Below, piece by piece: positions 5,296-40,247 of a stretch of 64,000 nt of DNA. The position numbers and the translations under genes are program-made. Every line of letters starts with the position of its first letter. Position 1 is the stretch's first letter. Source of the DNA: Candidatus Omnitrophota bacterium (GTDB lineage Bacteria > Omnitrophota > Gorgyraeia > 2-01-FULL-45-10); assembly GCA_041650935.1 (NCBI GenBank), contig JBAZKH010000006.1, positions 29,505 through 93,504 on the forward strand. Reading direction: 5' to 3'. Below the pieces are notes generated by a model, which saw nothing but the letters and a program-made list of their open reading frames with translations, had not been told where the DNA came from and made no database searches.

Positions 5296-5898
5296 TTGGC
5301 TCAAGGACCCTCTGATGCGAAAGGCGATTACCGCCGAGCTTGGCCGTTCGGGAATCTTTTCGAGGAGTGGGAAGTTGCGACAGCCAGAAGTCTTGTCGGC
5401 GAGTTCTGCGGCAAATGGAGCCTGTTAAAACGAGAAGGGTTTGAGGATTTATTACAAGAATGTCTCACGCACTGGTATTTCGCGAAAGACAAGTACGATC
5501 CAAAAGACAAAGCGTCAATGAAGACATTCATGCGGCGAGTCACAAGGAACAAGCTCGCTGACATTGTTAAAAGAATATACAGCGAGAAGAGAAAAGCCCT
5601 GCACGAAGCGGTCCCCCTCGATGAGTCCATTTTAACTGACAAGGAAGAAAGCGATCTTAGTGTCGAAAGCGACGCTTTGAAAAATATCTCATCCACCGAT
5701 TTAAACGCATCCCTCCGAAAAGCATTTCAAAAATTATCCCCGAAACAAAAGAAACTCTGCAAGCTTCTTTACGAAGAAGGCCTGAATATCAACGAGGCGA
5801 GCAAGTATTTTAAGACGCATCGAAGGACTGTCTACAAAGAAGTCGCTCGTATTCGGGAAATCTTCGAAAAAGAAGGCCTCAGGGATTACCTCAAATAA
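5296..5898 (+). CDS. Sigma-70 family (ECF-like) sigma factor, probably prophage-encoded
   Basis: Region-2-like DLLQECLTHWYFAKDKYDPKDKASMKTFMRRVTRNKLADIVK and region-4-like LSPKQKKLCKLLYEEGLNINEASKYFKTHRRTVYKEVARIREIFEK (HTH). The true start may be internal. Confidence 0.5.
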   Translation: MAQGPSDAKGDYRRAWPFGNLFEEWEVATARSLVGEFCGKWSLLKREGFEDLLQECLTHWYFAKDKYDPKDKASMKTFMRRVTRNKLADIVKRIYSEKRKALHEAVPLDESILTDKEESDLSVESDALKNISSTDLNASLRKAFQKLSPKQKKLCKLLYEEGLNINEASKYFKTHRRTVYKEVARIREIFEKEGLRDYLK

Positions 5899-6352: not shown

Positions 6353-7272
6353 ATGAAATTCCTATCACTTTGTTCCGGTTGCGGAGGCATGGATCTCGGT
6401 ATAGAAAAGGCGGGCTTTAGATGCGTGGGCCAAGTAGAAATAATGCCGTATGCTTTAAAAGTCTTGAAGAAGAACTGGCCAAGCGTTCCAAAACATACGG
6501 ACGTCTTGACCTTATTGCGTTCGGCTTCCCTTGTCAGGATATATCGAACGCGAACCCGAAAGGAAAGGGTCTTAAGGGCGAGAAGAGCAATATCTTCTTC
6601 GAGTGTATGCGTGTTACGAGACTACTTGTGCCTACTTGGTTACTCATTGAAAACGTACCCCGACTCCTTTCAATTAACGAGGGCCGGGACTTTGCGCTTG
6701 TCCTCGAAAACCTTTCCAAAAGCGGGTACGGGTATTCATGGAGAGTTCTGGACAGTCAATACTTCGGAGTGGCCCAACGCCGCAAACGTCTCTTCATTGT
6801 CGGACGTTTTGGAGGAGCGTGTCCACCCGAAATATTATTTGAGCAGGCGTGCGGTCGCCGGCATGATCCAGCGCTCGAAGAAATGGGGCCGAGGGGGCTA
6901 TGTATTTCTACTAAGTGCGGGGACGGGCAGGACCCGACGGCTGAGACGTTTATCGCTTCAACGATTCGAGTCAATCGTGACGGGCAGGGAAGCCCTTTCA
7001 ACTTCGGGGGAGAGAATATCGTCGCGCATACGATCGGCGCGGGACAGCGAGGAAACGCTACCTTTATATGGCAAGACACTCATATTGCGCAAGCTAACTC
7101 CCACGGAAAAAGAAGCTCTGCAAGGGCTACCAAAGGATTGGACGCTCGCAGAGGAATCTTAATCGGTAATGCCGTAACTGTTCAGGTGGCAGAATGGATC
7201 GCAAAAAGGATCTATGACTACGAGAGAAAGAACGGGCTTATTAATGCAAGGGTTTCAGTATCTGGAGAATAA
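6353..7272 (+). pseudogene. DNA (cytosine-5) methyltransferase (Dcm family) disrupted by at least three frameshifts
   Basis: All canonical C5-MTase motifs are present but split over two reading frames.
- Motif I LCSGCGGMDLG lies in frame A (6353-).
- Motifs IV FGFPCQDIS, VI LIENVPRLL and VIII QRRKRLFIVG lie in frame B (6421-).
- Motif IX RKLTPTEKEALQGLPKDW is back in frame A (about 7084-7150).
- Motif X GNAVTVQVAEWIAKRI is again in frame B (7165-).
Frame switches fall near 6490-6510, about 7083 and about 7155. Confidence 0.65.
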
Positions 7273-7666
7273 CTTCTTTAACCTGTGTAAGACTCGCAAT
7301 ATTTATAAGATTTCGCAACTACTTCTTATCTATCTTCGAGGTCTTTATTATTATTTCGGGAAGCCCGCTTTTTACTGGAAGGATGAGCGCGTTATGCAGC
7401 ATCTAGGCATATCAAAGAATACGTTAAGGGACGCCCGTAATATCTTAAGAGAACGCGGCGCTATCGACTTTCAAACATTCTTAGGCAGAGGCAGGGCCGT
7501 TAAGTATCTTATCCTAAAGACTGAGCTTGCTCCTGAATTAAAAGGGTCAAAAATTAACCCTTTTGTGGATAACTCGAGAAAAGGGTCAGAATTTGAACGA
7601 AAAGGGTCAGATATTGACCCTTTAGGTCGTGCTCAAAAGGGTCAGAATTTGACCCCCAAGATATAA
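7214..7666 (+). CDS. HTH-domain protein, phage replication-initiator/organizer-like (HTH_36-like), iterons embedded in 3' end
   Basis: YLRGLYYYFGKPAFYWKDERVMQHLGISKNTLRDARNILRERGAIDF is a typical initiator-type winged HTH. The C-terminus is encoded by an iterated DNA repeat (KGS-x repeats). Real start possibly ATG 7244. Confidence 0.45.
   Translation: MTTRERTGLLMQGFQYLENNFFNLCKTRNIYKISQLLLIYLRGLYYYFGKPAFYWKDERVMQHLGISKNTLRDARNILRERGAIDFQTFLGRGRAVKYLILKTELAPELKGSKINPFVDNSRKGSEFERKGSDIDPLGRAQKGQNLTPKI
7541..7658 (+). repeat. Four iterons of AAAGGGTCA-N5-9-TGACCCTTT-like palindromes (putative replication origin / initiator binding array)
   Basis: Copy 1 at 7541-7564: AAAGGGTcaaaaattaACCCTTTT. 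Copy 2 at 7579-7596: AAAAGGGTCAGAATTTGA. Copy 3 at 7600-7623: AAAGGGTCAgatatTGACCCTTT, a perfect 9/5/9 palindrome. Copy 4 at 7636-7658: AAAAGGGTCAGAATTTGACCCCC. Confidence 0.6.
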
Positions 7667-7696
7667 GAGATATATATAACAGTAGAGTTATGGCTT

Positions 7697-8431
7697 GTGG
7701 ATAAGTCTATGGTTGAAGCTCAAACATTAAAAGCGTCAGTAAGGTTATCCCCAGAGTGGGAAGCGAAACTCGATAAGCTCTACGATCTAGGCGTAAGGCG
7801 GTTAAAAAGAGCGAGAAAAACCTTTTTTAGGAAATCGGATATTATCGTAACCGCATGGGACGCTCGATTATATCAGATCATCGAAAACGAACGGCGCAAA
7901 GTCTCGGGTAAAAATAGTCTTTGGGACAGGAAGCTTCGTAACCTAGTCGCAGGATGGAATATCTGGTATTACCAACTCTTGGGACATCCGCCGGTTTTGG
8001 TTAAGACGATTTATCGAAAACATAGCGATTGGCAATCGAGATTTTCTTATATGCTTAGGCGTTATTATCAAGAGCATAAACAGTATGGATGGGATAGAAA
8101 GTTCGATACGCTGCGAAAATGCTGGGCTGATACTGGAAAACAAATCAAAGGAGGAATAGGTTTTATGGACAAGACTATGCCGAATGAAAGGATAGGAATA
8201 ATCGAGTTAAGACAGATGCTTGTAAAGCAAGACCTTCGCTGCGCTCTGTCAGGAAGGGATCTTACTGCGTCCAACTGTTCTTTGGATCATATCGTGCCGC
8301 TGTCAAGAGGAGGCGTTCACACGAAAGAGAACGCACAACTCGTATGCGATGAGGTGAATAGAGCAAAGGGTATGATGACCGAGAGCGAGTTTATTGAGCT
8401 ATGCCAAGATGTTATCAAATGGAAAAAATAA
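7697..8431 (+). CDS. HNH endonuclease domain protein (phage, packaging-associated type)
   Basis: C-terminal LRCALSGRDLTASNCSLDHIVPLSRGGVHTKENAQLVCDEVNRAKG is an HNH motif (DH..N..N). Encoded upstream of the terminase genes. Confidence 0.7.
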   Translation: MDKSMVEAQTLKASVRLSPEWEAKLDKLYDLGVRRLKRARKTFFRKSDIIVTAWDARLYQIIENERRKVSGKNSLWDRKLRNLVAGWNIWYYQLLGHPPVLVKTIYRKHSDWQSRFSYMLRRYYQEHKQYGWDRKFDTLRKCWADTGKQIKGGIGFMDKTMPNERIGIIELRQMLVKQDLRCALSGRDLTASNCSLDHIVPLSRGGVHTKENAQLVCDEVNRAKGMMTESEFIELCQDVIKWKK

Positions 8432-8623
8432 ACAAGGGAGCGGGTCCTTACCGGCGCCCAGTGCGGGTCGGGCGAGGCGCGGCCTGTCAGTGATTACAGG
8501 ACAAAAAAACCGTGTCCGTGTCCCGACTTTTGAGGACCCCCGAGATCTCGTCACAAAAGGGGCAAAGAACCGCAATTAGCTGTGAATAAATGGGTTATGT
8601 CGGTAATTTAAGGAGAAAAGGGA

Positions 8624-9916
8624 GTGGCTAAGGTTAAGATAAATCATGAAATCAGGGACATTTTACTTAAAGACTTGTCCCCGGCACCATATAATCCGCG
8701 CGATATCTCTAACGAGGCCTTGTCGGGCCTGCGGCACAGTCTCGAGAAGTTCGGTTACCTGGACCTTCTCGTAGTAAACAAGCGAACGATGCATATTGTC
8801 TCGGGCCACCAACGCTACAAGATTCTTAAAGACGAAGGCGTGGAGTCGGTGCCCGTGCTTCTTGTGGACGTTGATGAGCTCTTAGAGCAGGCGATGAACG
8901 TTACTCTGAACAATCAGGAGATATCGGGTATCTGGACGAGCATGCTCTTTCCGATACTGGAGCGCCTGAGGCGGGAAATGCCGGAGGACTACAGCAGTTT
9001 AAGGCTTAGGAACCTGCGGGACTCGGTATCCAAGCTCGAACCCGAGAACTTAGGCACAGGCAAGACGCTTCCCGATGATATCCCCGAACCGCCCGAACCT
9101 ATTACTAAGCTAGGCGACCTGTGGATACTCGGAGAACACCGCCTTTTGTGCGGGGATTCGACAAAAGAGGAAGATGTCGCTCGTCTTATGAACGGCGAGA
9201 AGGCGGCTTTGTTCGCTACCGACCCTCCATATTGCGTGGACTACACAGGCGACAACCGCCCCGGCGCCGGCAAGGATTGGTCAAGCGTATATCACGAGAT
9301 CGACATTCCCGATGCAAAGGTGTTTTTGAAGAGTTTTTTGCAGATAGGCCTGAAATTCATAAAAGAGCATACGGCTATCTACGTCTGGCATGCCTCTAAG
9401 CGAAAGAGCTTAATCGAGACTATCTGCGATGAGCTCGGCATCCTCATTCATCAGGAGATCATCTGGGTTAAGCCCTGCACGATCCTTACCTATTCGTTTT
9501 ATTCTTGGAGGCACGAGCCGTGTTTACTCATGTGGGTTCGGGGCTTCAAACCGCCTTATAAGCCCGAAGACAAATCAATCGGCACCGTTTGGAGGATCGA
9601 TCTTTTAAGAAGAGGCGATCCGACAACTCCCGACTACTACACCGATGTGTGGGAAGTCGACTGGGAAGGTAAGAAGCGCAACACCGGCCTTAAGCACCCC
9701 ACCGTAAAACCGACCGAGGTATTCGCGATCCCCATGCGAGTTCATACCTCGGTTGGTGATATCTGCTATGAGCCGTTCTCGGGCTCGGGCAGTCAGATTA
9801 TAGCGGGCGAGCGCGTTAACAGGCGCGTCTATGCAATGGAGATAGAGCCGGTGTTCTGCGACGTGGCGGTGAAACGTTGGGAAGACTTTACTGGAAGAAA
9901 GGCGGTCAAGACTTAG
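8624..9916 (+). CDS. ParB-like nuclease domain fused to beta-class DNA methyltransferase (N6-adenine or N4-cytosine)
   Basis: N-terminal ParB/Srx motif: PYNPRDIS...HIVSGHQRYKILKDEGVESVPVLLVD. DPPY motif in ALFATDPPYCVDY. Motif I FxGxG in EPFSGSGSQ at the C-terminus. The order IV then I marks a beta-class MTase. Confidence 0.8.
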   Translation: MAKVKINHEIRDILLKDLSPAPYNPRDISNEALSGLRHSLEKFGYLDLLVVNKRTMHIVSGHQRYKILKDEGVESVPVLLVDVDELLEQAMNVTLNNQEISGIWTSMLFPILERLRREMPEDYSSLRLRNLRDSVSKLEPENLGTGKTLPDDIPEPPEPITKLGDLWILGEHRLLCGDSTKEEDVARLMNGEKAALFATDPPYCVDYTGDNRPGAGKDWSSVYHEIDIPDAKVFLKSFLQIGLKFIKEHTAIYVWHASKRKSLIETICDELGILIHQEIIWVKPCTILTYSFYSWRHEPCLLMWVRGFKPPYKPEDKSIGTVWRIDLLRRGDPTTPDYYTDVWEVDWEGKKRNTGLKHPTVKPTEVFAIPMRVHTSVGDICYEPFSGSGSQIIAGERVNRRVYAMEIEPVFCDVAVKRWEDFTGRKAVKT

Positions 9917-10543
9917 GTGGCGGAAGAAAGCAGCAATCTAATAAAGTTAGCCAGGAAGAAGCGGCATATTCATCTTGTCGAGAAACTCGGCAAAGGATCG
10001 CTCAGTCAAAAGGAAATGGACGAGCTCGCCGGTTACGAGAAAGAGGTCGAAGGGCAGGTGCCGGTCCTCGCTGACGGAACTGTGGATCTTGAGACGATCG
10101 CCATCTATCTTGAGAAGTCGGTTAAAAGCATCAGGCGTTATGTAGATGCAGGGATGCCTGCCGTAAAGAGCCCGGCAGGCGAGATATTGAGATTCAAGGT
10201 TTCGGATGCGTTCAAATGGTTTTATTCGCGCGAGGGCTATGACGACGGGTCAAGAACCAAGTGGGATATCGAGTACCGCAAGAATAAGGCCAAGCTCTCC
10301 GAGATCGAACTCAAAGAAAAAGAGCGTGAGCTCATTCCGTACGAAGAACACGTTACTATCTTAAAAAATCAGATTCGGGGCATAAAGGCGGGCTTCTTAA
10401 GGTTACCGAAATATATCGCGCCGAGGCTTTATCAGCAGGAGCCTAAGGTCATCTGCGAAATGCTCGATAATGAGCTTCGTTATGTAATAGGACAGTTTTC
10501 GGGGAGTTATCATGCCGCTCAAAGTAAGCAAAAAAATTCTTAA
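9917..10543 (+). CDS. Putative terminase small subunit
   Basis: Sits directly upstream of and overlaps the large terminase gene. Small, basic and HTH-like. No strong motif. Confidence 0.4.
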   Translation: MAEESSNLIKLARKKRHIHLVEKLGKGSLSQKEMDELAGYEKEVEGQVPVLADGTVDLETIAIYLEKSVKSIRRYVDAGMPAVKSPAGEILRFKVSDAFKWFYSREGYDDGSRTKWDIEYRKNKAKLSEIELKEKERELIPYEEHVTILKNQIRGIKAGFLRLPKYIAPRLYQQEPKVICEMLDNELRYVIGQFSGSYHAAQSKQKNS

Positions 10544-12350
10544 AACGGTAAAGCCGTATATCCGGGACGAATGGTCTTTGCCCGACAAAATATCGGTATC
10601 CGACTGGGCGGACCTGAACAGGAGATTAGACGTGAAGACTTCGGCCGAGCCGGGCCAGTGGAATACATCCAGGACGCCTTACTTAAAGGGCATCATGGAT
10701 GCGTTCTCGGATCCTTTCGTGGAAGAGATAACCGTCATGTCGGCATCGCAGGTCGGTAAGACCGAAGCGATGTATAACATGCTCGGCTTCTTGATCGATC
10801 AGGACCCCGGGCCTACGCTCATGGTTCTTCCGAGGATAGACGACGCAAGGAGTATTTCGACGAACAGGGTTTTGCCGATGATACAATCAAGCCCTTGCCT
10901 TATGCGTTATATCCCGCAAAATTCGGACGAAATCACAAAGCTCGAGTATCATTTCGATCGCATGATCCTTTATTTCGCAGGATCCAACTCGCCGTCTGAT
11001 CTCGCTTCACGGCCTATAAGATATTTGTTTTTAGATGAAGTCGACAAATATCCGAAATTCTCGGGCCGTGAAGCAGATCCGATAAAACTGGCATCCGAGA
11101 GGCAGAAGACCTTCTGGAATAAGAAGACCGTCAAAGTCTCGACTCCTACGACAAGAGACGGTTATATTTACCGTGAATACGAAAAATCGGACATGTCAAG
11201 ATTTCACGTTCCTTGTCCTCATTGCGGTAAGCTACAGACCCTCGCATTTGGCCAGATTAAGTGGCCCAAGGAGGAGTCGGGCCCCGAGACCATAAAAAAC
11301 GACAAGCTCGCATGGTACGAGTGTATCGAATGTAAGGGCAGGATCGATGATAATCAAAAATCGAGAATGATGCTTCAAGGCAAATGGATCCCCGAAGTTA
11401 AAACCCGCACCAAGCACAAGGGCTTTTGGATTAATTCGCTATATTCGCCGTGGCTTACTTGGAGCGATATAGCGGCCGAATTCTTAAGATCTAAGGATTA
11501 CATAGAACTGCTCATGAACTTCGTCAACTCATGGCTTGCCGAGGTATGGGAAGAAAAGATCGAAGAGACGACAATCGATAAACTGCGCACCCTGGCGCGC
11601 GACTACGAGGAAGGATCGGTGCCGGATGATTGCCTGGTTCTTACGGCCGGGGTCGACGTTCAGAAGGATCACTTCTATTACGCCATAAGAGGGTGGGGTT
11701 ATTATGAGGAGTCGTGGCTTGTCCGGGCCGGCCGGTGCGAATACTGGGACGATATAGTCGACATCATCTTTAAGACCGAATATAAGAGGTCGTCCTCGGA
11801 AGAAGCATTATCGGTCTATATGTCCTGTGTCGATTCGGGGTTTAAGACCGACGAAGTGTACAGATTCTGCCGTCATTGGGCCGACAAGACCAAGGCCGTG
11901 AAGGGGCAGGAGGAGATATCGGGCGGAAGGTTCTACCGCGCCACGAAGATTGATATAAACTCGCGAACCGGCTCCGTGATCCCCGGAGGCCTCGTTCTCT
12001 GGAATATCAACACCAACCAATATAAGGACAAGCTGAATCGTCTTATTACCTCAAAGGACCCTGTTAAGTGGCATATCTTCCGAAATCCAACGGACGAATA
12101 TCTCAATCAAATGTCATCGGAGCATAAGATCCTGATTCGCAATAAGACTACGGGCAGGGCAAGAGAACTTTGGCAGAAAAAGAAAGAAGCGATCGCAAAT
12201 CACTTTCTTGATGCGGAGGTTTACGCACTTGCCGCGGCCGATATCATAAGGGCCTTAAATATAAGAAAAGACGACTCTAAGAGAGTTTACAAAAAAGAAG
12301 CGGCGAATAAAGAATCATGGATCAGGCGAAGAGAAGGAACATGGTTATAG
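10512..12350 (+). CDS. Terminase large subunit, lambda gpA family
   Basis: N-terminal ATPase with SASQVGKTE Walker-A-like motif. Central Cys4 zinc finger CPHCGK...CIECKG, typical of gpA-type terminases. 612 aa. Confidence 0.85.
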   Translation: MPLKVSKKILKTVKPYIRDEWSLPDKISVSDWADLNRRLDVKTSAEPGQWNTSRTPYLKGIMDAFSDPFVEEITVMSASQVGKTEAMYNMLGFLIDQDPGPTLMVLPRIDDARSISTNRVLPMIQSSPCLMRYIPQNSDEITKLEYHFDRMILYFAGSNSPSDLASRPIRYLFLDEVDKYPKFSGREADPIKLASERQKTFWNKKTVKVSTPTTRDGYIYREYEKSDMSRFHVPCPHCGKLQTLAFGQIKWPKEESGPETIKNDKLAWYECIECKGRIDDNQKSRMMLQGKWIPEVKTRTKHKGFWINSLYSPWLTWSDIAAEFLRSKDYIELLMNFVNSWLAEVWEEKIEETTIDKLRTLARDYEEGSVPDDCLVLTAGVDVQKDHFYYAIRGWGYYEESWLVRAGRCEYWDDIVDIIFKTEYKRSSSEEALSVYMSCVDSGFKTDEVYRFCRHWADKTKAVKGQEEISGGRFYRATKIDINSRTGSVIPGGLVLWNINTNQYKDKLNRLITSKDPVKWHIFRNPTDEYLNQMSSEHKILIRNKTTGRARELWQKKKEAIANHFLDAEVYALAAADIIRALNIRKDDSKRVYKKEAANKESWIRRREGTWL

Positions 12351-33900: not shown

Positions 33901-34251
33901 ATGACCAAGAAAGAGTCGAGAAAAATTCTCATGGATATTCATGAGAAGCATTACGGCAAGAATGGCTCGATTAAGAACAAGAAAGCGAAAAAGACCGCCG
34001 AGGATCGCAAGATCGCGGAGGCGGTTTCTCCGGTACTCGCCAATAAGAGCCGCAACGACCTTATGCTCGAGGCAAAAGCCAAGGGCATAAAAAACTTCCG
34101 CATCCTTAATAAGGCGGAGCTTTACAAGGTCCTCGATCCGGCTACGATTCAGCAGGAAATAGACGGCATTGTAAGCGACGCCGTTATAAGGTGGAAGTCA
34201 GGGTGGTCGAAGAATAAGACCGCCGGCAAGAAAGAGGAAGGCCAGAAATGA
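33901..34251 (+). CDS. Rho_N-like (SAP-like) small basic protein
   Basis: SRNDLMLEAKAKGIKNFRILNKAELYKVLD resembles the Rho termination factor N-terminal helix-extended-helix motif. Confidence 0.35.
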   Translation: MTKKESRKILMDIHEKHYGKNGSIKNKKAKKTAEDRKIAEAVSPVLANKSRNDLMLEAKAKGIKNFRILNKAELYKVLDPATIQQEIDGIVSDAVIRWKSGWSKNKTAGKKEEGQK

Positions 34252-36464
34252 AATACGAAGACAGGGAGCTTTTAGGTCGCATCATTCACTATTATCACAC
34301 ACGCCTGTTTGACGAGCAAAGGGCCCATGAATATTTAAAGAAGACGGGTCTTAGTAATCAGGAGACGTGTATACAGTTTAAGTTGGGATTCACCGGGGGT
34401 CTTGCAAGCGCCGTTCCGGACGATCCCGAGACGCTGAACAAGCTTAAACGGCTGGGGATACTCGGTGAGGACTTAAACGAGACGCTCCCTGATTCGCTCG
34501 TAGTTCCGATAAGAAGCGAGGGCAAGACTTACGCGAGCGTCATGGGTATAAGCTTAGCGGATAACAAGGAGAAGTTTCTGCCCGGGAACGAAGCCCTGTT
34601 TAATATGGAAGCGCTTAAGGCATCCAAAGAGATATATCTTACGGATTCGATCCTGAACGCGCTTCTACTATATACGATAGGGTTGCGCGAGACGGCATCG
34701 GTAATAGGGGAGGCTATTACCGATGTCCATCTCAAGCTTTTCGAGAAGTTTCAGACGAAATCGGTAACGCTTCTTGTTTCCGGTAATAATCTTCAGCGGT
34801 TTTCCAAGAAGATTAAGTCTCAAGGCATCGCCGTGGGCTATATCGATATCGATCCGAAGTCGCTTCCCCGGCTTATGCTGGAAGGCCTTAAGAAGGACTA
34901 TTGTTTAAGTCTGGTAAAAGAGCCGGAGATTAACCCGGCCGAGCCCATTATAGAGGAAAGGGGCGAGGAGATATTCTACGAGTTTGAGGACAGGCGTTAC
35001 AGGATAAGGAGACTGGATCCCTTCAGGCTCGATGCCTTAAGGGTAAATCTTAAAGCCACGCATCAGAACCTGTGGCATCTCGATACGATCGATCTATACG
35101 CCGAGCGGCAGAGGCGTAATTTCGTAATGATGGCAAGGAAGCTTATCAGGCTCGATCAGGGTTTTCTTTTTCAGGATATATTGAAGATAACCGAGGACCT
35201 GGAGGATAGGCAGGCAAAAATAATATTAGAGAAGAAGGAGAAGTTTCAGGAGATGCCGCCTCACGAGAAAGACGAGGCGATGACGTTCTTAAGGAGTGAC
35301 GATATCGTATCCGAAATATTGAAAGACTACGCCGGTCTCGGGATCGTGGGCGAAGAGACGAATATTCTCACAGGCTATTTTACGCTTATTTCCCGAAAGC
35401 TCGATCATCCGCTCTCAGTCATTCTTTGCGGGTCTAACGTATCGGGCAAGGATGCTTTAAAGGATGCGCTTCTTGATACGGTGCCGGAGGCCGATATCGA
35501 ACGCTTCACGAAACTTTCGCCTCAGGTGCTCTTTTACAGGGATGAGCTCTCGCTTCAGCACAGGATCCTTGCGATAGACGACGAGGGGTCGCTTAAGGAA
35601 CTTAACGCTATCCTTACCAGTCTTCAAAATAAGGGCCTGTCGTATTCGGTTACGCATAAAAGCCCCGAAACGGGCAAGCTTAGGAGCCACGATTATAAGG
35701 TAAAAGGGCCGGTGTCGGTTTTGGCGAGCGTATCCGATACGAAACTCATTAAAAATTTATCTGCCCGATTTATCGTACTGAAAGTGGACGAATCCAGGGA
35801 TCAGACGAAGAAGATTCTCTCAAAGCAACGTGAGGACGATACTCTTCAGGGGATATTGAAGGATAAAAAGGGCGAAGCGATAAGGCGCAAGCACCGTAAC
35901 GCGCAAAGGCTTCTTAAATCCTTAAAAGTCGTTAATCCCTACGCTAAGGACCTTGAAGGCGCGGATGGTCTGCCGGATGCCCGGAGCATGCAACCGAAGT
36001 ACTTAAGTCTTATTAAGGCGATATGCCTCTTAAGACAGTGTCATAAGGAGATTAAGCGCATAGAGGATTCGGAAGAGGAATATATAGAGGTGGACCCGAC
36101 CGATATCGAGATCGCAAACGACGTTATGGCCGGGATGCTTAAGTCGGCGCAACCTCTTTCGGAAGAGGCAGAAAAGGCCTTAAGGGATATCGAGGACCTC
36201 ATTGCCGAGAAATCAGGCGTCCATAACGCGTCAAAAGAGGGCATTGCGTTCACTATTAAAGAGCTGGCCGCATTCTCGCACCTATCCGATTACAGGGCGC
36301 GTTCCGTGACAGATGAGTTGGCCGAATCGGGCAGGATCGAGCTTGTGGCAGGATCCAACGGCAAGACGATGCAATATAGCCTCTCGGGGCCGGACAGGAA
36401 CGTTATACCAGAGCTTTTGAAACCTTTTGAAAATCAGGTCAAAAGGTCTGGCGTTCGTAAGTAG
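34248..36464 (+). CDS. Phage replication protein, DnaG-like (degenerate Toprim) N-terminal domain plus P-loop helicase-like C-terminal region
   Basis: LVVPIRSEGKTYASVMGISL...KFLPGNEALFNMEAL parallels the DnaG catalytic core (FPIrd.Grvigf...KYlNsPet.lf.K...Lyg). Later GSNVSGKD is P-loop-like. 738 aa. Confidence 0.45.
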   Translation: MKYEDRELLGRIIHYYHTRLFDEQRAHEYLKKTGLSNQETCIQFKLGFTGGLASAVPDDPETLNKLKRLGILGEDLNETLPDSLVVPIRSEGKTYASVMGISLADNKEKFLPGNEALFNMEALKASKEIYLTDSILNALLLYTIGLRETASVIGEAITDVHLKLFEKFQTKSVTLLVSGNNLQRFSKKIKSQGIAVGYIDIDPKSLPRLMLEGLKKDYCLSLVKEPEINPAEPIIEERGEEIFYEFEDRRYRIRRLDPFRLDALRVNLKATHQNLWHLDTIDLYAERQRRNFVMMARKLIRLDQGFLFQDILKITEDLEDRQAKIILEKKEKFQEMPPHEKDEAMTFLRSDDIVSEILKDYAGLGIVGEETNILTGYFTLISRKLDHPLSVILCGSNVSGKDALKDALLDTVPEADIERFTKLSPQVLFYRDELSLQHRILAIDDEGSLKELNAILTSLQNKGLSYSVTHKSPETGKLRSHDYKVKGPVSVLASVSDTKLIKNLSARFIVLKVDESRDQTKKILSKQREDDTLQGILKDKKGEAIRRKHRNAQRLLKSLKVVNPYAKDLEGADGLPDARSMQPKYLSLIKAICLLRQCHKEIKRIEDSEEEYIEVDPTDIEIANDVMAGMLKSAQPLSEEAEKALRDIEDLIAEKSGVHNASKEGIAFTIKELAAFSHLSDYRARSVTDELAESGRIELVAGSNGKTMQYSLSGPDRNVIPELLKPFENQVKRSGVRK

Positions 36465-36510: not shown

Positions 36511-37494
36511 TTGATGGAAAATCACGTTAAAGAGTTAGGCATAAAAGAACTGGCGGATTTTAAGCTGTATTTTAAGCTGCAAGGCTACGCCGATGGCAGC
36601 ATCCATCAATACGTCACCTATATGAAAGAATTTCTGCAGTATATAAAGGAAAAATCGATAGAGAAGTTGTCCGAGGTTACGCCGGAGGTAATATCCAAAT
36701 ATCAGCTGTATCTATCCACTGTTAAGCGCAAGCGCCCGGACAAAAAGAACCTGTCGATGATAACGCAGATCCATAAGATTGTGGCGATAATGCACTTCTT
36801 CAGATTTTTGGTAAGAGAGAAAAACTATCTATACGATCCCACGAGCCACATCAAGCTAAGAACCCCTCCGAGAAAGCGCGTCAGGGAGGTATTGTCCAAG
36901 AAGGAGATGTTAAGGCTCTTAAACGCCCCCAACCCCGAAACTCCTTTGGGGTTACGGGATAAGGCGTTACTGGAGCTGTATTATTCCTGCGGCATAAGGA
37001 ATACCGAATCGAGGATGCTTACGGTAAAAGACGCTGACCTCGAGAATAGACTCGTAAGGATCCGGTTTCCGAAAGGCGGAGGAGATCAGGGAGGAGATCA
37101 GACAGTACCTATCGGAAGGATCGCAGCATTGTATATAGACGAATATATAAGAAATGCCAGGCCGAAGCTCCTTAAAAACGATTTGGAAGAGACGCTGTTT
37201 CTGTCCAAGAACGGCAAGCCCTTAAGTGACGGCATGCCGGCGCATATAGTCCAGAAATACGCCGCAATCGCCAAGATTAATCGGAAAACAGACGCTCATA
37301 CTTTAAGGCATACGTGCGGAACTCATTTATATGATAACGGCGCTGATATAAGGTGCATTCAGGAACTACTCCGTCACAAGTCATTGGATACAACCCAGAT
37401 TTACATCGACGTCAAGGCCACGAAGTTGCGCAAGGTCTTGGAGAAGACCCATCCCAGGGAAAGGGGAATAGTATATGCTCCCGCTATTGAATGA
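36511..37494 (+). CDS. Tyrosine recombinase (integrase family), trio member 1
   Basis: HTLRHTCGTHLYDNGADIRCIQELLRHKSLDTTQIYIDV carries the R-HxxR-H-Y catalytic signature. Confidence 0.85.
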   Translation: MMENHVKELGIKELADFKLYFKLQGYADGSIHQYVTYMKEFLQYIKEKSIEKLSEVTPEVISKYQLYLSTVKRKRPDKKNLSMITQIHKIVAIMHFFRFLVREKNYLYDPTSHIKLRTPPRKRVREVLSKKEMLRLLNAPNPETPLGLRDKALLELYYSCGIRNTESRMLTVKDADLENRLVRIRFPKGGGDQGGDQTVPIGRIAALYIDEYIRNARPKLLKNDLEETLFLSKNGKPLSDGMPAHIVQKYAAIAKINRKTDAHTLRHTCGTHLYDNGADIRCIQELLRHKSLDTTQIYIDVKATKLRKVLEKTHPRERGIVYAPAIE

Positions 37495-38425
37495 GTTTAA
37501 GGACGGGCTCGAAAAGGAAGGCCTTCGTCAGTGCACGATCGAGAATATGGTAAGGCACGTTAATTTTTTCGCGAAATACTACAAGTCTTTCGATATGAGA
37601 AAGGTCTCGAGTAAAGATATCAAAAAATTCAAAATATACATCATGCTGGAGCATATTACCGAGAAAGGCAAAAATAAAGGCAAGAAGATATGCGTCGAAT
37701 ATGTCATATCCATACTATGTTCTTTGATGAAATACTTCAAATTTTTGGCGCAGAGAAGACATATATTTTTCGATCCGACGCTTGACTTGGAATTCCCGAA
37801 GAAGAATCCGCATTTTCCGGATTATATACCGAGCGAAAAAGATGTGCAGGAGCTGTTGCAAAAGCCGGATACGAATACTTACTGGGGGATAAGGGACAGG
37901 CTCTTATTTGAGCTTGCCTATACCTGTCCGCTACGAAACCAAGAACTTGGACGACTATGCATTCAGGATATCGATATGAAGGATAGATACATTTATCCGA
38001 AAAGAGAAAAAGGCGGGTATGAGTGCGGCATACCGATAACGGATTCTACGCATCAAATTTTGGAGAAATATCTTTCGATATCGCGCCCCCGGCTTTTGAA
38101 AGGAGCAAAAACCCCCACGATGACCGATAGATTGTTTATAACTATATACGGTGGTCCCTTCAAGAAGACTACCATAGACGATATATTCGCAAAATACCGG
38201 GGAGATAAGAGGATACATCCTCACTTGATGAGGCATGCCTGCGCCGTCCATATGCTGAAAGGCGGGGCAAGGATAAGGGATATTCAGGTTCTGTTGGGCC
38301 ACAGGCGACTGACCTCGACCAATCGCTATACTCGCCTGACAGCCAACGATATTAAAGACATACAAGATAAATATCATCCAAGGGAGAGGAGTGCTAGACG
38401 TGCTGCCGCTGTTGGACGAATTTAA
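37475..38425 (+). CDS. Tyrosine recombinase, trio member 2
   Basis: HPHLMRHACAVHMLKGGARIRDIQVLLGHRRLTSTNRYTRL. Overlaps member 1 by 20 nt. Confidence 0.85.
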   Translation: MLPLLNEFKDGLEKEGLRQCTIENMVRHVNFFAKYYKSFDMRKVSSKDIKKFKIYIMLEHITEKGKNKGKKICVEYVISILCSLMKYFKFLAQRRHIFFDPTLDLEFPKKNPHFPDYIPSEKDVQELLQKPDTNTYWGIRDRLLFELAYTCPLRNQELGRLCIQDIDMKDRYIYPKREKGGYECGIPITDSTHQILEKYLSISRPRLLKGAKTPTMTDRLFITIYGGPFKKTTIDDIFAKYRGDKRIHPHLMRHACAVHMLKGGARIRDIQVLLGHRRLTSTNRYTRLTANDIKDIQDKYHPRERSARRAAAVGRI

Positions 38426-40247
38426 GCAGAAGTTATTAAAGGAACACAAGCTTATAACTATGACCAACACGATAAGTATATGCTTTATGCTGGAAGACTG
38501 GTATGGGTCAGACCGCATGGAGAAGATAACATGCGAAGACCTTGATCGATTCAAAAAATATCTTATGACAGAATACATTACGCGTACTGGCGGGCATTAT
38601 CATCTTTCAACCATCGTAGCGAGGTTCGAAGGGCTAAAGAAATATTTTGCGTTTTTGATGGAGAAGAAATATATATCGAAGGACCCCATGTGCGGTCTTG
38701 AGTTCCCGAAGACAAAACCGCAACTGCCACCGTGGCTGCCTACAGAGAAAGAAGTCCGTGAGCTTATAAATAAAGTCGACGCAAGCTCGCCTCAGGGCTC
38801 GTCCGATAAGGCGGTAATCGCACTAATGTCGATCATGCCGTTAAAGAATAAGGAAGTGGGGCCACTTACGGTAGACCAGGTGGACATAGAGAATAGATGC
38901 GTATATCCTATAAAAGGATCGAAAGAGCTCGCGATACCGATGCCCGATCCTATCTTTGAAATACTGAATAAGTATATTACGAAGGATCGTTATCATATAG
39001 TCAAGTGGCTTAAAGCCCCGACAGACTTACTTTTCGTAAGCAGGCTCGGGACGGCGTTCTTTGAGTCAACGCTGAATAATATATTCTCTAGATATAACAG
39101 ATATGCTCCGCGCGAGAAGCGCATATATCCGTATCTTATGCGGCCGGCTACGGCCAACCATATGCGAAAAAGGGGAATGAAACTCGAGGACATCCATAAG
39201 ATCTTGGGCGTAAAATACAGAACCGTCGGTACCTATACAACTCTTGCCAGAAATGAAATAAGGGCGGAAGAGGAAAGATACGTGGCAAAGATACCTTTGT
39301 TCAAGGAGTTTAAAGAGAAACTCGTAAAAGACGAGTTATCCCCGAACATGATTCACAACGCTTTGAAGGCGATCATATTCTTTGCCAAGTATTTAAAGAG
39401 CGATGATATGAAAAAGATCACCCCTGCCGATATCGGAAGGTGCAAAAATTATGTTTTAAACGAGTATATTACCATCGAGAATAGAAAATTAACCGAACAA
39501 GAGGTGGCTTTGAGGTTGCGTGCTTTAAAGACATATTTCAATTTTCTTGCGGAGAGCAGGTATCTTTCGTCAGATCCGGCTGTAGATATAAAGATTCCGG
39601 ACGTCCCTCCTCGCATAAATTGGTATCGGCCGACAGATGAAGCTATAGAAGAGTTCGCATCTAGACCTGATCCGTATACATACGTAGGCATGCGAGATGC
39701 TGTGATAATACGATTGTGGCACCTTACCGCGTTAAAACCCAATGAGCATATGGATCTAAAAGTGCAAGATATAGATTTGAATAAGAAAGTGCTTTATGTG
39801 CCAGGGCCAAGACGTCGCACCTTGAAATTGGATGATAAAACATATAAGGCCGTCGAGCGATATCTTACCAAATCCAGGCCTGTATTCTTGAAGAAAGCCA
39901 AGGAGCCTACCGATAAGTTATTTATGAATGAATGGGGAGGTCCTCTTGCTCTATGTAGTATGTATGATATATTTTGGAAATATAAGGGCGACAGGAAGAT
40001 TAAACCATGCATTTCAAGGCATGCGAGGGCTCTCAAAATGTTTCGTGACGGCTCCAGCGCCGAAGAAGTTAAAAAGGCCTTAGGTTTTAGATCTATTAGA
40101 TCGTGCCAAGCTTATAAAGCGATGGTTGCGAAGGATGTAACTGGTTTCTATAAGAAGGATCGCTTTGAGGAGAAGGTCAGGCTTATTAGACGAGAAAAAC
40201 CCGCTTACCATTCAGATAATTCCAATCTTGTAACACTTCCCAAGTAG
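38391..40247 (+). CDS. Tandem double tyrosine-recombinase-fold protein, trio member 3
   Basis: Two successive recombinase modules: YPYLMRPATANHM...ILGV...GTY and ISRHARALKMF...ALGF...CQAY. Both lack the second conserved His. 618 aa. Overlaps member 2 by 35 nt. Confidence 0.65.
   Translation: MLDVLPLLDEFKQKLLKEHKLITMTNTISICFMLEDWYGSDRMEKITCEDLDRFKKYLMTEYITRTGGHYHLSTIVARFEGLKKYFAFLMEKKYISKDPMCGLEFPKTKPQLPPWLPTEKEVRELINKVDASSPQGSSDKAVIALMSIMPLKNKEVGPLTVDQVDIENRCVYPIKGSKELAIPMPDPIFEILNKYITKDRYHIVKWLKAPTDLLFVSRLGTAFFESTLNNIFSRYNRYAPREKRIYPYLMRPATANHMRKRGMKLEDIHKILGVKYRTVGTYTTLARNEIRAEEERYVAKIPLFKEFKEKLVKDELSPNMIHNALKAIIFFAKYLKSDDMKKITPADIGRCKNYVLNEYITIENRKLTEQEVALRLRALKTYFNFLAESRYLSSDPAVDIKIPDVPPRINWYRPTDEAIEEFASRPDPYTYVGMRDAVIIRLWHLTALKPNEHMDLKVQDIDLNKKVLYVPGPRRRTLKLDDKTYKAVERYLTKSRPVFLKKAKEPTDKLFMNEWGGPLALCSMYDIFWKYKGDRKIKPCISRHARALKMFRDGSSAEEVKKALGFRSIRSCQAYKAMVAKDVTGFYKKDRFEEKVRLIRREKPAYHSDNSNLVTLPK

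Follow-up and report, generated by a model that had tools for sequence, protein, structure and literature searches.

A candidate prophage replication origin within a small winged-helix protein gene of a Candidatus Omnitrophota bacterium

A cluster of four repeats in the 3′ end of a small prophage gene, putative sites for the winged-helix protein that the gene encodes, forms a candidate prophage replication origin together with two DnaA boxes and an AT-rich tract, a reading that is reasonably probable on the sequence evidence. The repeats lie in the window, the whole 64,000-nt stretch of DNA that was analysed, and by their sequence are real, conserved and putatively bound by protein. An earlier note on this DNA had proposed a putative phage ori, a proposal that gains support from the AT-rich tract adjoining the repeats and from the conservation of the repeats at the DNA level. 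The layout is most likely a familiar, lambda-like one rather than a novel element type.

The repeat array is composed of four AAAGGGTCA-type units (7541-7655), of which three have dyad symmetry; none is assigned a strand. Unit 1 (7541-7563; AAAGGGTCA AAAAT TAACCCTTT) is 8/9 symmetric, unit 3 (7601-7623; AAAGGGTCA GATAT TGACCCTTT) is a perfect 9/5/9 palindrome, and unit 4 (7636-7655; AAAGGGTCA GAATT TGACCC) has 6 symmetric pairs. Unit 2 (7580-7596; AAAGGGTCA GAATT TGA) is a half site made of the left arm and 3 nt of the right arm. The longer string AAAAGGGTCA occurs in four copies starting at 7540, 7579, 7600 and 7635, with start-to-start distances of 39, 21 and 35. The earlier description of four units within about 120 nt, one of them a perfect 9/5/9 palindrome (7601-7623), is borne out, and so is the location of the array inside the 3′ end of its gene, ORF 7214-7666. 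All five exact copies of AAGGGTCA on both strands of the 64-kb window fall in 7542-7644; 1.3 are expected, and none of 100 shuffles gave five. Allowing up to 2 mismatches, GGGTCAN5TGACCC has four matches, which are precisely units 1-4.

Two perfect DnaA boxes (TTATCCACA), both on the minus strand, are the only exact ones in the 64-kb window (starts 7564 and 7696; 0.41 expected). Box 1 (7564-7572) abuts unit 1 and is encoded as F-V-D-N, with an identity of 0.97 across clade 1 and an exact match in 9/10 clade-1 loci. Box 2 (7696-7704) lies past the stop codon in the window, where it shares bases with the earliest potential start codon of the HNH ORF; it is present in all ten clade-1 loci, exact in nine and CGTGGATAA in L001. 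Some loci translate it, as T/I-V-D-N in P0004 and P0005, and in other loci it is non-coding. The earlier note's description did not include these boxes. No DnaA box was found in clade 2 or in more distant relatives, and the boxes are therefore dispensable for the module as far as these sequences go.

Directly after unit 4, an AT-rich tract (7660-7695, no strand assigned; GATATAAGAGATATATATAACAGTAGAGTTATGGCT) with 28% GC is a candidate DNA-unwinding element, in line with the earlier suggestion to look for an adjacent AT-rich region. The tract is the local GC minimum and ranks among the 1.3% of 36-nt prophage windows with the least GC, a modest distinction given 53 comparably AT-rich islands in the prophage (31.5 kb). 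Clades 1 and 2 and L023 all have an AAGAGAT(A/T)(T)AAACCATTA-like motif behind their last unit, in coding and non-coding settings alike.

Comparison among relatives reveals that selection acts on the DNA of the array, with a fixed geometry. In eight clade-1 loci, identity at codon positions 1/2/3 is 0.82/0.89/0.51 over the N-terminal part of the gene, a pattern that marks 7244-7537 as coding, versus 0.76/0.83/0.85 over the array; at third positions, the array (0.85) differs from the rest of the gene (0.51) with a Mann-Whitney p of 1.4e-10. In these eight clade-1 loci, the arms and DnaA box 1 have identities of 0.86-0.97, compared with 0.48-0.71 for centres and spacers; for unit 1, the values are 0.89-0.96 for the arms and 0.64 for the centre. 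Unit 1 is missing from clade 2, and unit 2, with a left-arm identity of 0.975, is found in both clades. Across 16 loci from the two clades, which share ~55% protein identity, an 84-nt alignment of the array has zero gaps and 40 invariant columns, and 91% of cells in unit 3 are symmetric. The 39/21/35 spacing is likewise maintained gap-free in related loci. Conservation of the repeats in related prophages, which the earlier note had named as a check, holds wherever a related locus extends over the 3′ end of the gene.

The tail of the protein reads KGS...KGS...KGS...KGQ and the array RNA folds better than its shuffles (z = -4.35), observations that would suit repeats arising as a by-product of a KGS-x peptide repeat or as mRNA hairpins. 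This explanation is scarcely credible. Units 1-3 share the codon phase AAA GGG TCA (K-G-S), but unit 4 is read as AAG GGT CAG (K-G-Q) with a one-base offset, because the spacing of 35 is not divisible by 3; the earlier reading of the coding sequence as KGS-x repeats thus holds for units 1-3 and fails for unit 4. This offset in frame therefore makes the array a DNA repeat, not a peptide repeat. Third codon positions in the array are conserved equally with first and second positions, the tail is predicted to be disordered, and the AT-rich motif and DnaA box 2 are retained where they are non-coding. As for RNA structure, the arms are conserved by sequence, and covariation is not significant (36/500 shuffles reached it). 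No Rfam family matches at threshold, with matches far below gathering scores, and inverted repeats of whatever kind yield a low folding energy by themselves.

In more distant relatives, the architecture persists with other repeat sequences. L023 and L024 (48% identity) have the arms GACTATGAAAGA/TCTTTCACAGTC with the 21- and 35-nt spacing unchanged, L006 and L007 have AAACCCTTCA/TGAAGGGTTT at the same place, and L008-L010 (27-40% identity) carry at least five GG(A/T)AACACAA repeats. Judged from these sequences, the repeat changes together with the protein in distant relatives.

The gene that houses the array (7214-7666, plus strand) is a 150-aa ORF, and the ATG at 7241 is the start in most homologues. 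Its product has a winged-helix fold at residues ~17-105, modelled with AF2 pLDDT of 85-94 over the domain. The array spans codons ~109-148, beyond the folded domain, and encodes residues 111-150, which are predicted to be disordered (AF2 pLDDT <50). The protein ends 11 nt past the array and has no C-terminal domain for recruiting a helicase or loader. Close homologues measure 122-167 aa and more distant ones up to 195 aa, with at most short tail extensions, and the best-scoring of ~184 family representatives are mostly 110-190 aa. The protein is, in short, only the DNA-binding half of a typical initiator.

Replication is also the theme of the family's relationships. The searches gathered 26 homologues. 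Of 21 family members compared with PHROGs, 18 match phrog_186 (DnaD-like helicase loader); other matches are to phrog_270 (15 members), phrog_19658 (7), phrog_428 (4) and phrog_678 (2). All PHROG families matched by the 21 members belong to replication and none to any other category, and viral fold matches are labelled replication initiator, replisome organizer or GpO N-terminal. The 7214-7666 protein itself matches PHROGs only weakly (E = 0.0017 and 0.0038), and no Pfam family, Phage_rep_O included, matches it at E <= 0.01. A sequence profile search of the PDB returned no solved-structure homologue, only generic HTH matches at E > 0.2, and blastn (DNA) and tblastn (protein) searches of GenBank phages returned no close annotated relative. 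The label 'initiator-like HTH' in the earlier note is supported by the winged-helix fold, the exclusively replication/DnaD-like PHROG matches and the replication-module context of distant homologues. That context takes several forms. The L010 homologue carries its iterons mid-gene with an AT-rich stretch behind them, and a DnaC-like loader gene comes next; in L023, genes for a DnaD-like/Phg_2220_C protein and then a DnaB-like helicase come after the homologue; and in P0125, this winged helix is fused to a DnaB_C helicase domain.

In the window, the gene's neighbours encode a C5-methyltransferase, an HNH endonuclease and a ParB-methyltransferase, and no helicase loader or DnaB-type helicase gene adjoins it. 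The only replication enzyme found in the window is a 738-aa protein (34248-36464, plus strand), likely the phage primase(-helicase) that would serve the candidate origin, with an N-terminal DnaG-type primase core and, after it, a P-loop NTPase region. Residues 7-176 match TIGR01391 dnaG (E = 3.7e-6), further matches are to phrog_6444 DNA primase (E = 3.7e-4) and PDB 2au3 primase (E = 0.035), and a Walker-A-like GSNVSGKD and a Walker-B-like ILAIDDE are apparent on reading the sequence. The earlier note regarded the array as oddly far from this primase. The placement is not odd, because a prophage carries the phage genome in circularly permuted order: with the prophage ends joined, ~9 kb separates the primase gene from the array, and only integrases and a few early genes lie in between.

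The element integrates and has tyrosine recombinases. Its limits, at about 2.4-40 kb, derive from gene content and GC only; a search of its ends found no direct repeat of at least 13 nt linking 2-5.3 kb with 33-44 kb, and no tRNA gene. The host phylum, Candidatus Omnitrophota, is uncultivated.

The order of sigma factor, winged-helix gene and packaging genes is conserved in relatives. The position just upstream of packaging genes in clade 1 and L006 counts against an origin, as a regulator of late genes or an accessory site for packaging would fit there too. The protein might accordingly regulate the transcription of its own gene or of the late/packaging operon downstream, with the palindromes as its operators. 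Palindromic sites are typical of dimeric repressors, the clade-1 gene is flanked by a phage sigma factor on one side and the ParB-methyltransferase/terminase operon on the other, and the gene precedes terminase in L006 too. An operator array is nevertheless rather unlikely. Distant homologues either neighbour DnaB- or DnaC-like genes or form a fusion with a DnaB helicase, PHROG matches of the family include no regulator, and the site has no further copy elsewhere in the 64 kb. A promoter/terminator scan found nothing at the array, and no sigma-70-like promoter was found on the plus strand at 7400-7800, although the promoters of this phylum and of the phage sigma factor may be of another type. 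Operators would also leave two conserved DnaA boxes and the AT-rich tract unexplained.

A second possibility raised by the packaging genes is that the array belongs to a cos/pac recognition region, with the winged-helix protein as a packaging specificity factor. Downstream of the array come a GC-rich, conserved non-coding element (8431-8620) at ~0.8 kb, a distance that is only ~100 nt in relatives without the HNH insertion, and the small terminase gene at 2.3 kb; there is also a large terminase of the lambda gpA type. A packaging role is quite improbable even so: the module is away from terminase genes in L023, L008-L010 and L019 and is not co-inherited with them, a separate small terminase exists (phrog_57, E = 1.3e-11), and the stronger candidate for cos is the GC-rich element, which has TGTCAGTG / GTGTCCGTGTCC repeats of its own. 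The DnaA boxes would again be unexplained.

SPP1 gp38 binds a second site, oriR (PMC6316719), a precedent for some other cis site of the same protein, such as a centromere-like partition site, an incompatibility site or a titrating copy-control site. Such a function is highly improbable: the prophage integrates and has tyrosine recombinases, a search for a partition NTPase found none, and the ParB-N domain is fused to a methyltransferase that is unlinked to the module in clade 2 and L023. The DnaA boxes and the AT-rich tract suit an origin better. The ParB-methyltransferase was also considered as the array-binding protein and rejected, given that its gene is unlinked to the module in clade 2 or L023.

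An origin is thus the preferred reading, and its sequence features suggest how it might work. The array (7541-7655) would offer four binding sites to the winged-helix protein of the same gene, and dimers of this protein would occupy the dyad-symmetric units, a binding mode proposed because the units are palindromic. Bound dimers might assemble further into a higher-order nucleoprotein complex, in the manner of lambda O on its four 19-bp iterons. Together with host DnaA at the flanking boxes, this complex would destabilise the adjacent AT-rich tract, where the helicase would then be loaded. Since the 7214-7666 protein has no recruiting C-terminal domain, the helicase would be supplied by other proteins, with delivery by host DnaA/DnaB, by the phage primase/P-loop protein (34248-36464) or by both.

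The closest parallels are with origins that lie inside the gene of their own initiator, a principle known since lambda and SPP1. The candidate is probably of this style, with a minimal initiator and DnaA boxes. In lambda, the O-some forms when O dimers bind four 19-bp iterons (PMC3985674). The putative sites described here resemble ori-lambda and gene O in having four ~20-bp (19-23 bp) repeats with dyad symmetry (3/4 units here) within initiator coding sequence, in placing the repeats in a protein segment outside any domain, in having an AT-rich region directly on one side, and in a dimeric binding mode, here implied by the palindromes (PMC3985674). The differences are equally plain. The 7214-7666 protein has no Pfam Phage_rep_O match, and the 'O-like' phrog_678 is matched by only 2/21 members; the protein ends right after the array, without a domain like that recruiting lambda P-DnaB. 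Unlike ori-lambda, the array has two perfect DnaA boxes interleaved with it and occupies the 3′ end of the gene rather than the middle, although the L010 homologue has the lambda-like, mid-gene arrangement.

SPP1 encodes the replisome organizer gp38, the loader gp39 and the DnaB-type helicase gp40. The homologue, DnaD-like protein and DnaB-like helicase of L023 mirror genes 38-39-40 in their order. At oriL, gp38 repeats lie within gene 38 and adjoin an AT-rich DUE (PMC6316719). The candidate origin shares with oriL the repeats of a (here putative) origin-binding protein in its own gene beside an AT-rich tract, and the protein shares with gp38 an N-terminal winged-helix domain and a family affinity to DnaD-like/replisome-organizer PHROGs. 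SPP1 repeats are direct, whereas these are palindromic, and the window has no adjoining loader or DnaB helicase gene, although L010 (DnaC-like) and L023 (DnaD-like and DnaB_C) do have such neighbours.

Iteron-plasmid origins (for example P1 oriR, pSC101, RK2 and F) are similar in combining initiator repeats, host DnaA boxes and an AT-rich tract. By analogy, this combination suggests an element-encoded specificity factor that cooperates with host DnaA in helicase loading. Iteron-plasmid Rep has two winged-helix domains and binds direct repeats as a monomer. The prophage system differs in its single modelled winged helix, its palindromic sites, its in-gene origin and its residence in an integrating prophage.

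These comparisons raise the possibility, which we advance tentatively, that the family represents a 'minimal' phage initiator: one ~100-residue winged helix, encoded by a gene that ends in its own origin, that confers only origin specificity, with helicase loading left either to host DnaA, acting through the interleaved boxes, or to the primase/P-loop protein of the phage. If so, the system would be a hybrid, its in-gene palindromic origin being of the lambda type and its DnaA dependence of the plasmid type. Those relatives that have the 21/35-nt geometry and unrelated arms would then be natural orthogonal initiator-origin pairs, from phages of Omnitrophota and Planctomycetota, which are, to our knowledge, phyla without any replication genetics.

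The in-gene position of the origin would not surprise a specialist. If the origin reading is correct, it supplies a concrete candidate origin and initiator for a prophage of Candidatus Omnitrophota, for which we know of no genetic tools, and the ~500-bp origin-plus-initiator cassette would be the kind of part needed for building replicons. A fixed geometry with a swapped recognition sequence would also be a clean natural case of initiator/site coevolution, in which initiator and sites evolve together because both share one stretch of DNA.

Two minor features of the locus deserve mention. An apparent compensatory change in unit 4 (GGGTCA..TGACCC versus GGGTGA..TCACCC) was rejected, because both one-sided C/G intermediates exist (L003/L022 and L019/L021); on this sequence evidence, the variable position is degenerate. 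A DnaA-box-like TTATCCCCA with 1 mismatch (7745-7753, plus strand) lies in the opposite orientation inside the HNH gene and is given low weight; it is common only to L026, another carrier of the HNH gene.

Four repeat units occupy 7541-7655, in the 3' end of a 150-aa winged helix-turn-helix (wHTH) gene (7214-7666, plus strand). AAAAGGGTCA begins at 7540, 7579, 7600 and 7635 (start-to-start spacing 39, 21 and 35 nt). Unit 1 (7541-7563) is an 8/9 palindrome, unit 2 (7580-7596) has only the left arm plus TGA, unit 3 (7601-7623) is the perfect 9/5/9 palindrome AAAGGGTCA GATAT TGACCCTTT, and unit 4 (7636-7655) has 6 symmetric pairs, much as the earlier note described the units of 7541-7658. All five exact copies of the octamer AAGGGTCA on both strands of the whole 64 kb fall in 7542-7644; 1.3 copies are expected in 64 kb, and none of 100 shuffles reaches five. 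The loose pattern GGGTCAN5TGACCC has four matches, identical with units 1-4, and no further copy of the site lies outside the array within the 64 kb window. The clustering exceeds chance. Units 1-3 are read as AAA GGG TCA (KGS) and unit 4, shifted by one base, as AAG GGT CAG (KGQ); the description of the array as KGS-x repeats thus holds for the first three units and fails for the fourth, whose offset makes the repeat a translated DNA repeat and not a peptide repeat.

Repeat conservation in related loci, a point raised in the earlier note, is borne out. A search of 5.8 billion clusters yields 26 homologues of the wHTH protein, and an exhaustive profile search finds 184 family representatives among 1.84 billion, the best-scoring mostly 110-190 aa. 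The source genomes of the relatives are MAGs of Candidatus Omnitrophota and a single one of Planctomycetia. Among the 26 loci fetched for comparison, a repeat array is present in all whose sequence covers the 3' end of the gene. Clade 1 (the window, L001, L005, L011-L016 and L026) has units 1-4 and two DnaA boxes; clade 2 (L002, L003, L017-L022; ~55% protein identity) has units 2-4 and no DnaA box. Sixteen loci of the two clades align without gaps over 84 nt, with 40 invariant columns. Across eight aligned clade-1 loci, identity at codon positions 1/2/3 is 0.82/0.89/0.51 in the N-terminal domain (7244-7537), a normal coding signature, and 0.76/0.83/0.85 in the array (7538-7658), where third-position conservation matches that of the other positions (Mann-Whitney p = 1.4e-10). 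Within the array, the same loci show identities of 0.86-0.97 in the arms and DnaA box 1 and of 0.48-0.71 in the unit centres and spacers. That the units matter as a peptide repeat or an RNA hairpin is scarcely credible, given the conserved third positions, the frame offset of unit 4, the retention of sequence where it is non-coding and a covariation signal that is not significant.

The reverse complement, TGTGGATAA, of the DnaA box consensus TTATCCACA is present at 7564-7572, abutting unit 1, and again at 7696-7704, 41 nt past unit 4. The window has no other exact DnaA box (0.41 expected), and the earlier note had missed both. An AT-rich region does lie beside the array, as anticipated: GATATAAGAGATATATATAACAGTAGAGTTATGGCT, between unit 4 and DnaA box 2, is 28% GC and the local GC minimum. 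It ranks among the lowest 1.3% of prophage 36-nt windows, but because the prophage has 53 such islands the tract alone is modest evidence. DnaA box 2 and the AT-rich motif are kept both when translated (homologous proteins P0004 and P0005) and past the stop codon (window, L011, L014). Past the last repeat, clades 1 and 2 and L023 all carry the motif AAAGAGATTAAACCATTA(G/A)A (window 7670-7690; L001 2047-2062; L003 2325-2345; L023 2318-2335), L023 despite its unrelated iterons. Where translated the motif reads (E)IKPL(E/D); it may act as DNA (within the unwinding region or as a site for a host factor), as a short peptide, or in both ways.

Distant homologues carry different repeat sequences at the same position in the gene. 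L023 and L024 (48% protein identity) share GACTATGAAAGA / TCTTTCACAGTC, L006 and L007 (56% in the N-terminal domain) share AAACCCTTCA / TGAAGGGTTT, and L008-L010 (27-40%) have at least five GG(A/T)AACACAA repeats with an AT-rich stretch after them. The L023 array retains the 21 + 35 nt spacing of window units 2-3-4. The sites track the wHTH gene, not the ParB-methyltransferase or the terminase. Swapped sequence with constant geometry, always in linkage with the wHTH gene, is the expectation if its product binds the sites. A packaging accessory site is improbable, since the module is found without terminase genes in other loci and a conserved GC-rich element (8431-8620) that carries repeats of its own is the better cos candidate. 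A partition or titration site is more improbable still, its partner genes being absent.

AlphaFold2 with the family alignment predicts a confident winged helix at residues ~17-105 (pLDDT 85-94) and a disordered array-encoded tail (residues 111-150). The window protein has no Pfam match and its own PHROG matches are weak. Many viral fold matches are labelled replication initiator, replisome organizer or lambda GpO N-terminal. Among 21 family members, 18 match phrog_186 (DnaD-like helicase loader; best E = 6.9e-8), 15 phrog_270, seven phrog_19658, four phrog_428 and two phrog_678 (O-like), and none matches a PHROG family outside the replication category; the label "initiator-like HTH" is supported. 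In L010 the homologue is a 290-aa protein with mid-gene repeats and a C-terminal domain, and a DnaC-like loader gene comes next. At L008 6025-6962 two ORFs make up the initiator homologue, with the break directly past the repeat array. Each half has a match to phrog_23776, a family that the intact L010 protein matches over its full length; this suggests that truncation at the origin can yield N-terminal-only proteins such as that of the window. Downstream of the L023 homologue come a DnaD-like/Phg_2220_C protein and a DnaB-like helicase. In P0125, a remote family member of 416 aa, residues 2-106 are fused directly to a DnaB_C helicase domain (164-414, E = 3e-73), which would put an origin-binding domain and a replicative helicase in one polypeptide. 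Upstream of the initiator, the SNF2-type helicase of L010 (2420-5209) is 350 aa longer than that of L008 (3653-5392); the extra block sits exactly in the GLGKT Walker A motif, ends in THNT and looks like an intein with a homing-endonuclease domain.

The conservation, the swapped repeats and the replication-family protein support the earlier reading of a putative phage ori, and a phage replication origin within its initiator gene is the probable function of the array, if by no means a certain one. Dimers of the wHTH domain would bind the dyad-symmetric units and build a higher-order complex, host DnaA would fill both DnaA boxes, and the AT-rich tract between unit 4 and DnaA box 2 would open for helicase loading. 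Because the protein ends at the array, without a C-terminal recruiting domain, helicase delivery would rely on DnaA, the phage primase/P-loop protein, or both. In clade 1 and L006 the wHTH gene precedes the late operon, a position that would fit an operator array. This reading is nevertheless unlikely: the affinities of the family are exclusively with replication, homologues are linked to helicases, DnaA boxes are present and there are no further sites.

A replication origin of this kind is alike in layout to ori-lambda in gene O, whose sites adjoin an AT-rich region, although by sequence the window protein falls outside the lambda O family and it lacks the C-terminal domain. In lambda, four ~19-bp sites are bound by O dimers (PMC3985674). 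The array also resembles SPP1 oriL, located in gene 38 (PMC6316719). Iteron plasmids share the DnaA boxes, but their two-domain Rep and direct repeats are both absent here. The distinctive traits of the window system are its proposed minimal initiator and interleaved DnaA boxes.

The prophage spans roughly 2.4-40 kb at a GC of ~0.49, above that of the host, between a host-like histidine kinase (104-2311) and host fatty-acid synthesis genes (43644 onward); no att repeats or tRNA gene marking its ends were found. A phage sigma factor (5296-5898), a frameshifted C5-methyltransferase (6353-7272), the wHTH gene, an HNH endonuclease (7697-8431), a ParB-N/methyltransferase fusion (8624-9916), small (9917-10543) and lambda gpA-type large (10512-12350) terminases and, past 12350, structural genes follow in order, and L005 and L011 repeat the order of sigma factor, wHTH gene, ParB-methyltransferase and terminase. 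The array had seemed oddly placed, far from the DnaG-like primase/P-loop protein (34248-36464), but the prophage is a permuted phage genome, which explains the distance: with its ends joined, the two lie roughly 9 kb apart. The primase/P-loop protein (738 aa) combines a weak DnaG-type primase core (residues ~7-207) with a P-loop region (GSNVSGKD, ILAIDDE) and has no Pfam match; the sole match of its C-terminal part is phrog_12057, of unknown function, and it may be a divergent primase-helicase. Three tandem tyrosine recombinases at the right end (36511-40247; 327, 316 and 618 aa) recall "recombinase in trio" elements and may be either phage genes or a separate inserted element.

The C5 methyltransferase lies in two overlapping frames, 6353-7162 (N-terminal SGCGG) and 6421-7272 (FPCQ and the remainder), shifted near 6490-6510; a pseudogene, a programmed shift and an assembly error are all conceivable. 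The HNH gene, whose earliest possible start (GTG at 7697) overlaps DnaA box 2, is an insertion separating the array from the conserved GC-rich element. The window and L026 have this insertion; L001, L005, L011, L012, L014, L015 and L016 lack it, and in these loci the element comes within ~100 nt after the wHTH gene. The element itself (8431-8620; GGGTCC..GCGGGTCGGGCGAGGCG..TGTCAGTGATTACAGG..GTGTCCGTGTCCCGAC) is non-coding, highly conserved, common to the window and clade-1 loci, and upstream of the ParB-methyltransferase and terminase genes; contig L013 stops a few bases short of it. Its L005 counterpart has several TGTCAGT repeats. The element is a candidate cos site for the lambda gpA-type terminase, and its repeats would be bound by the small terminase.
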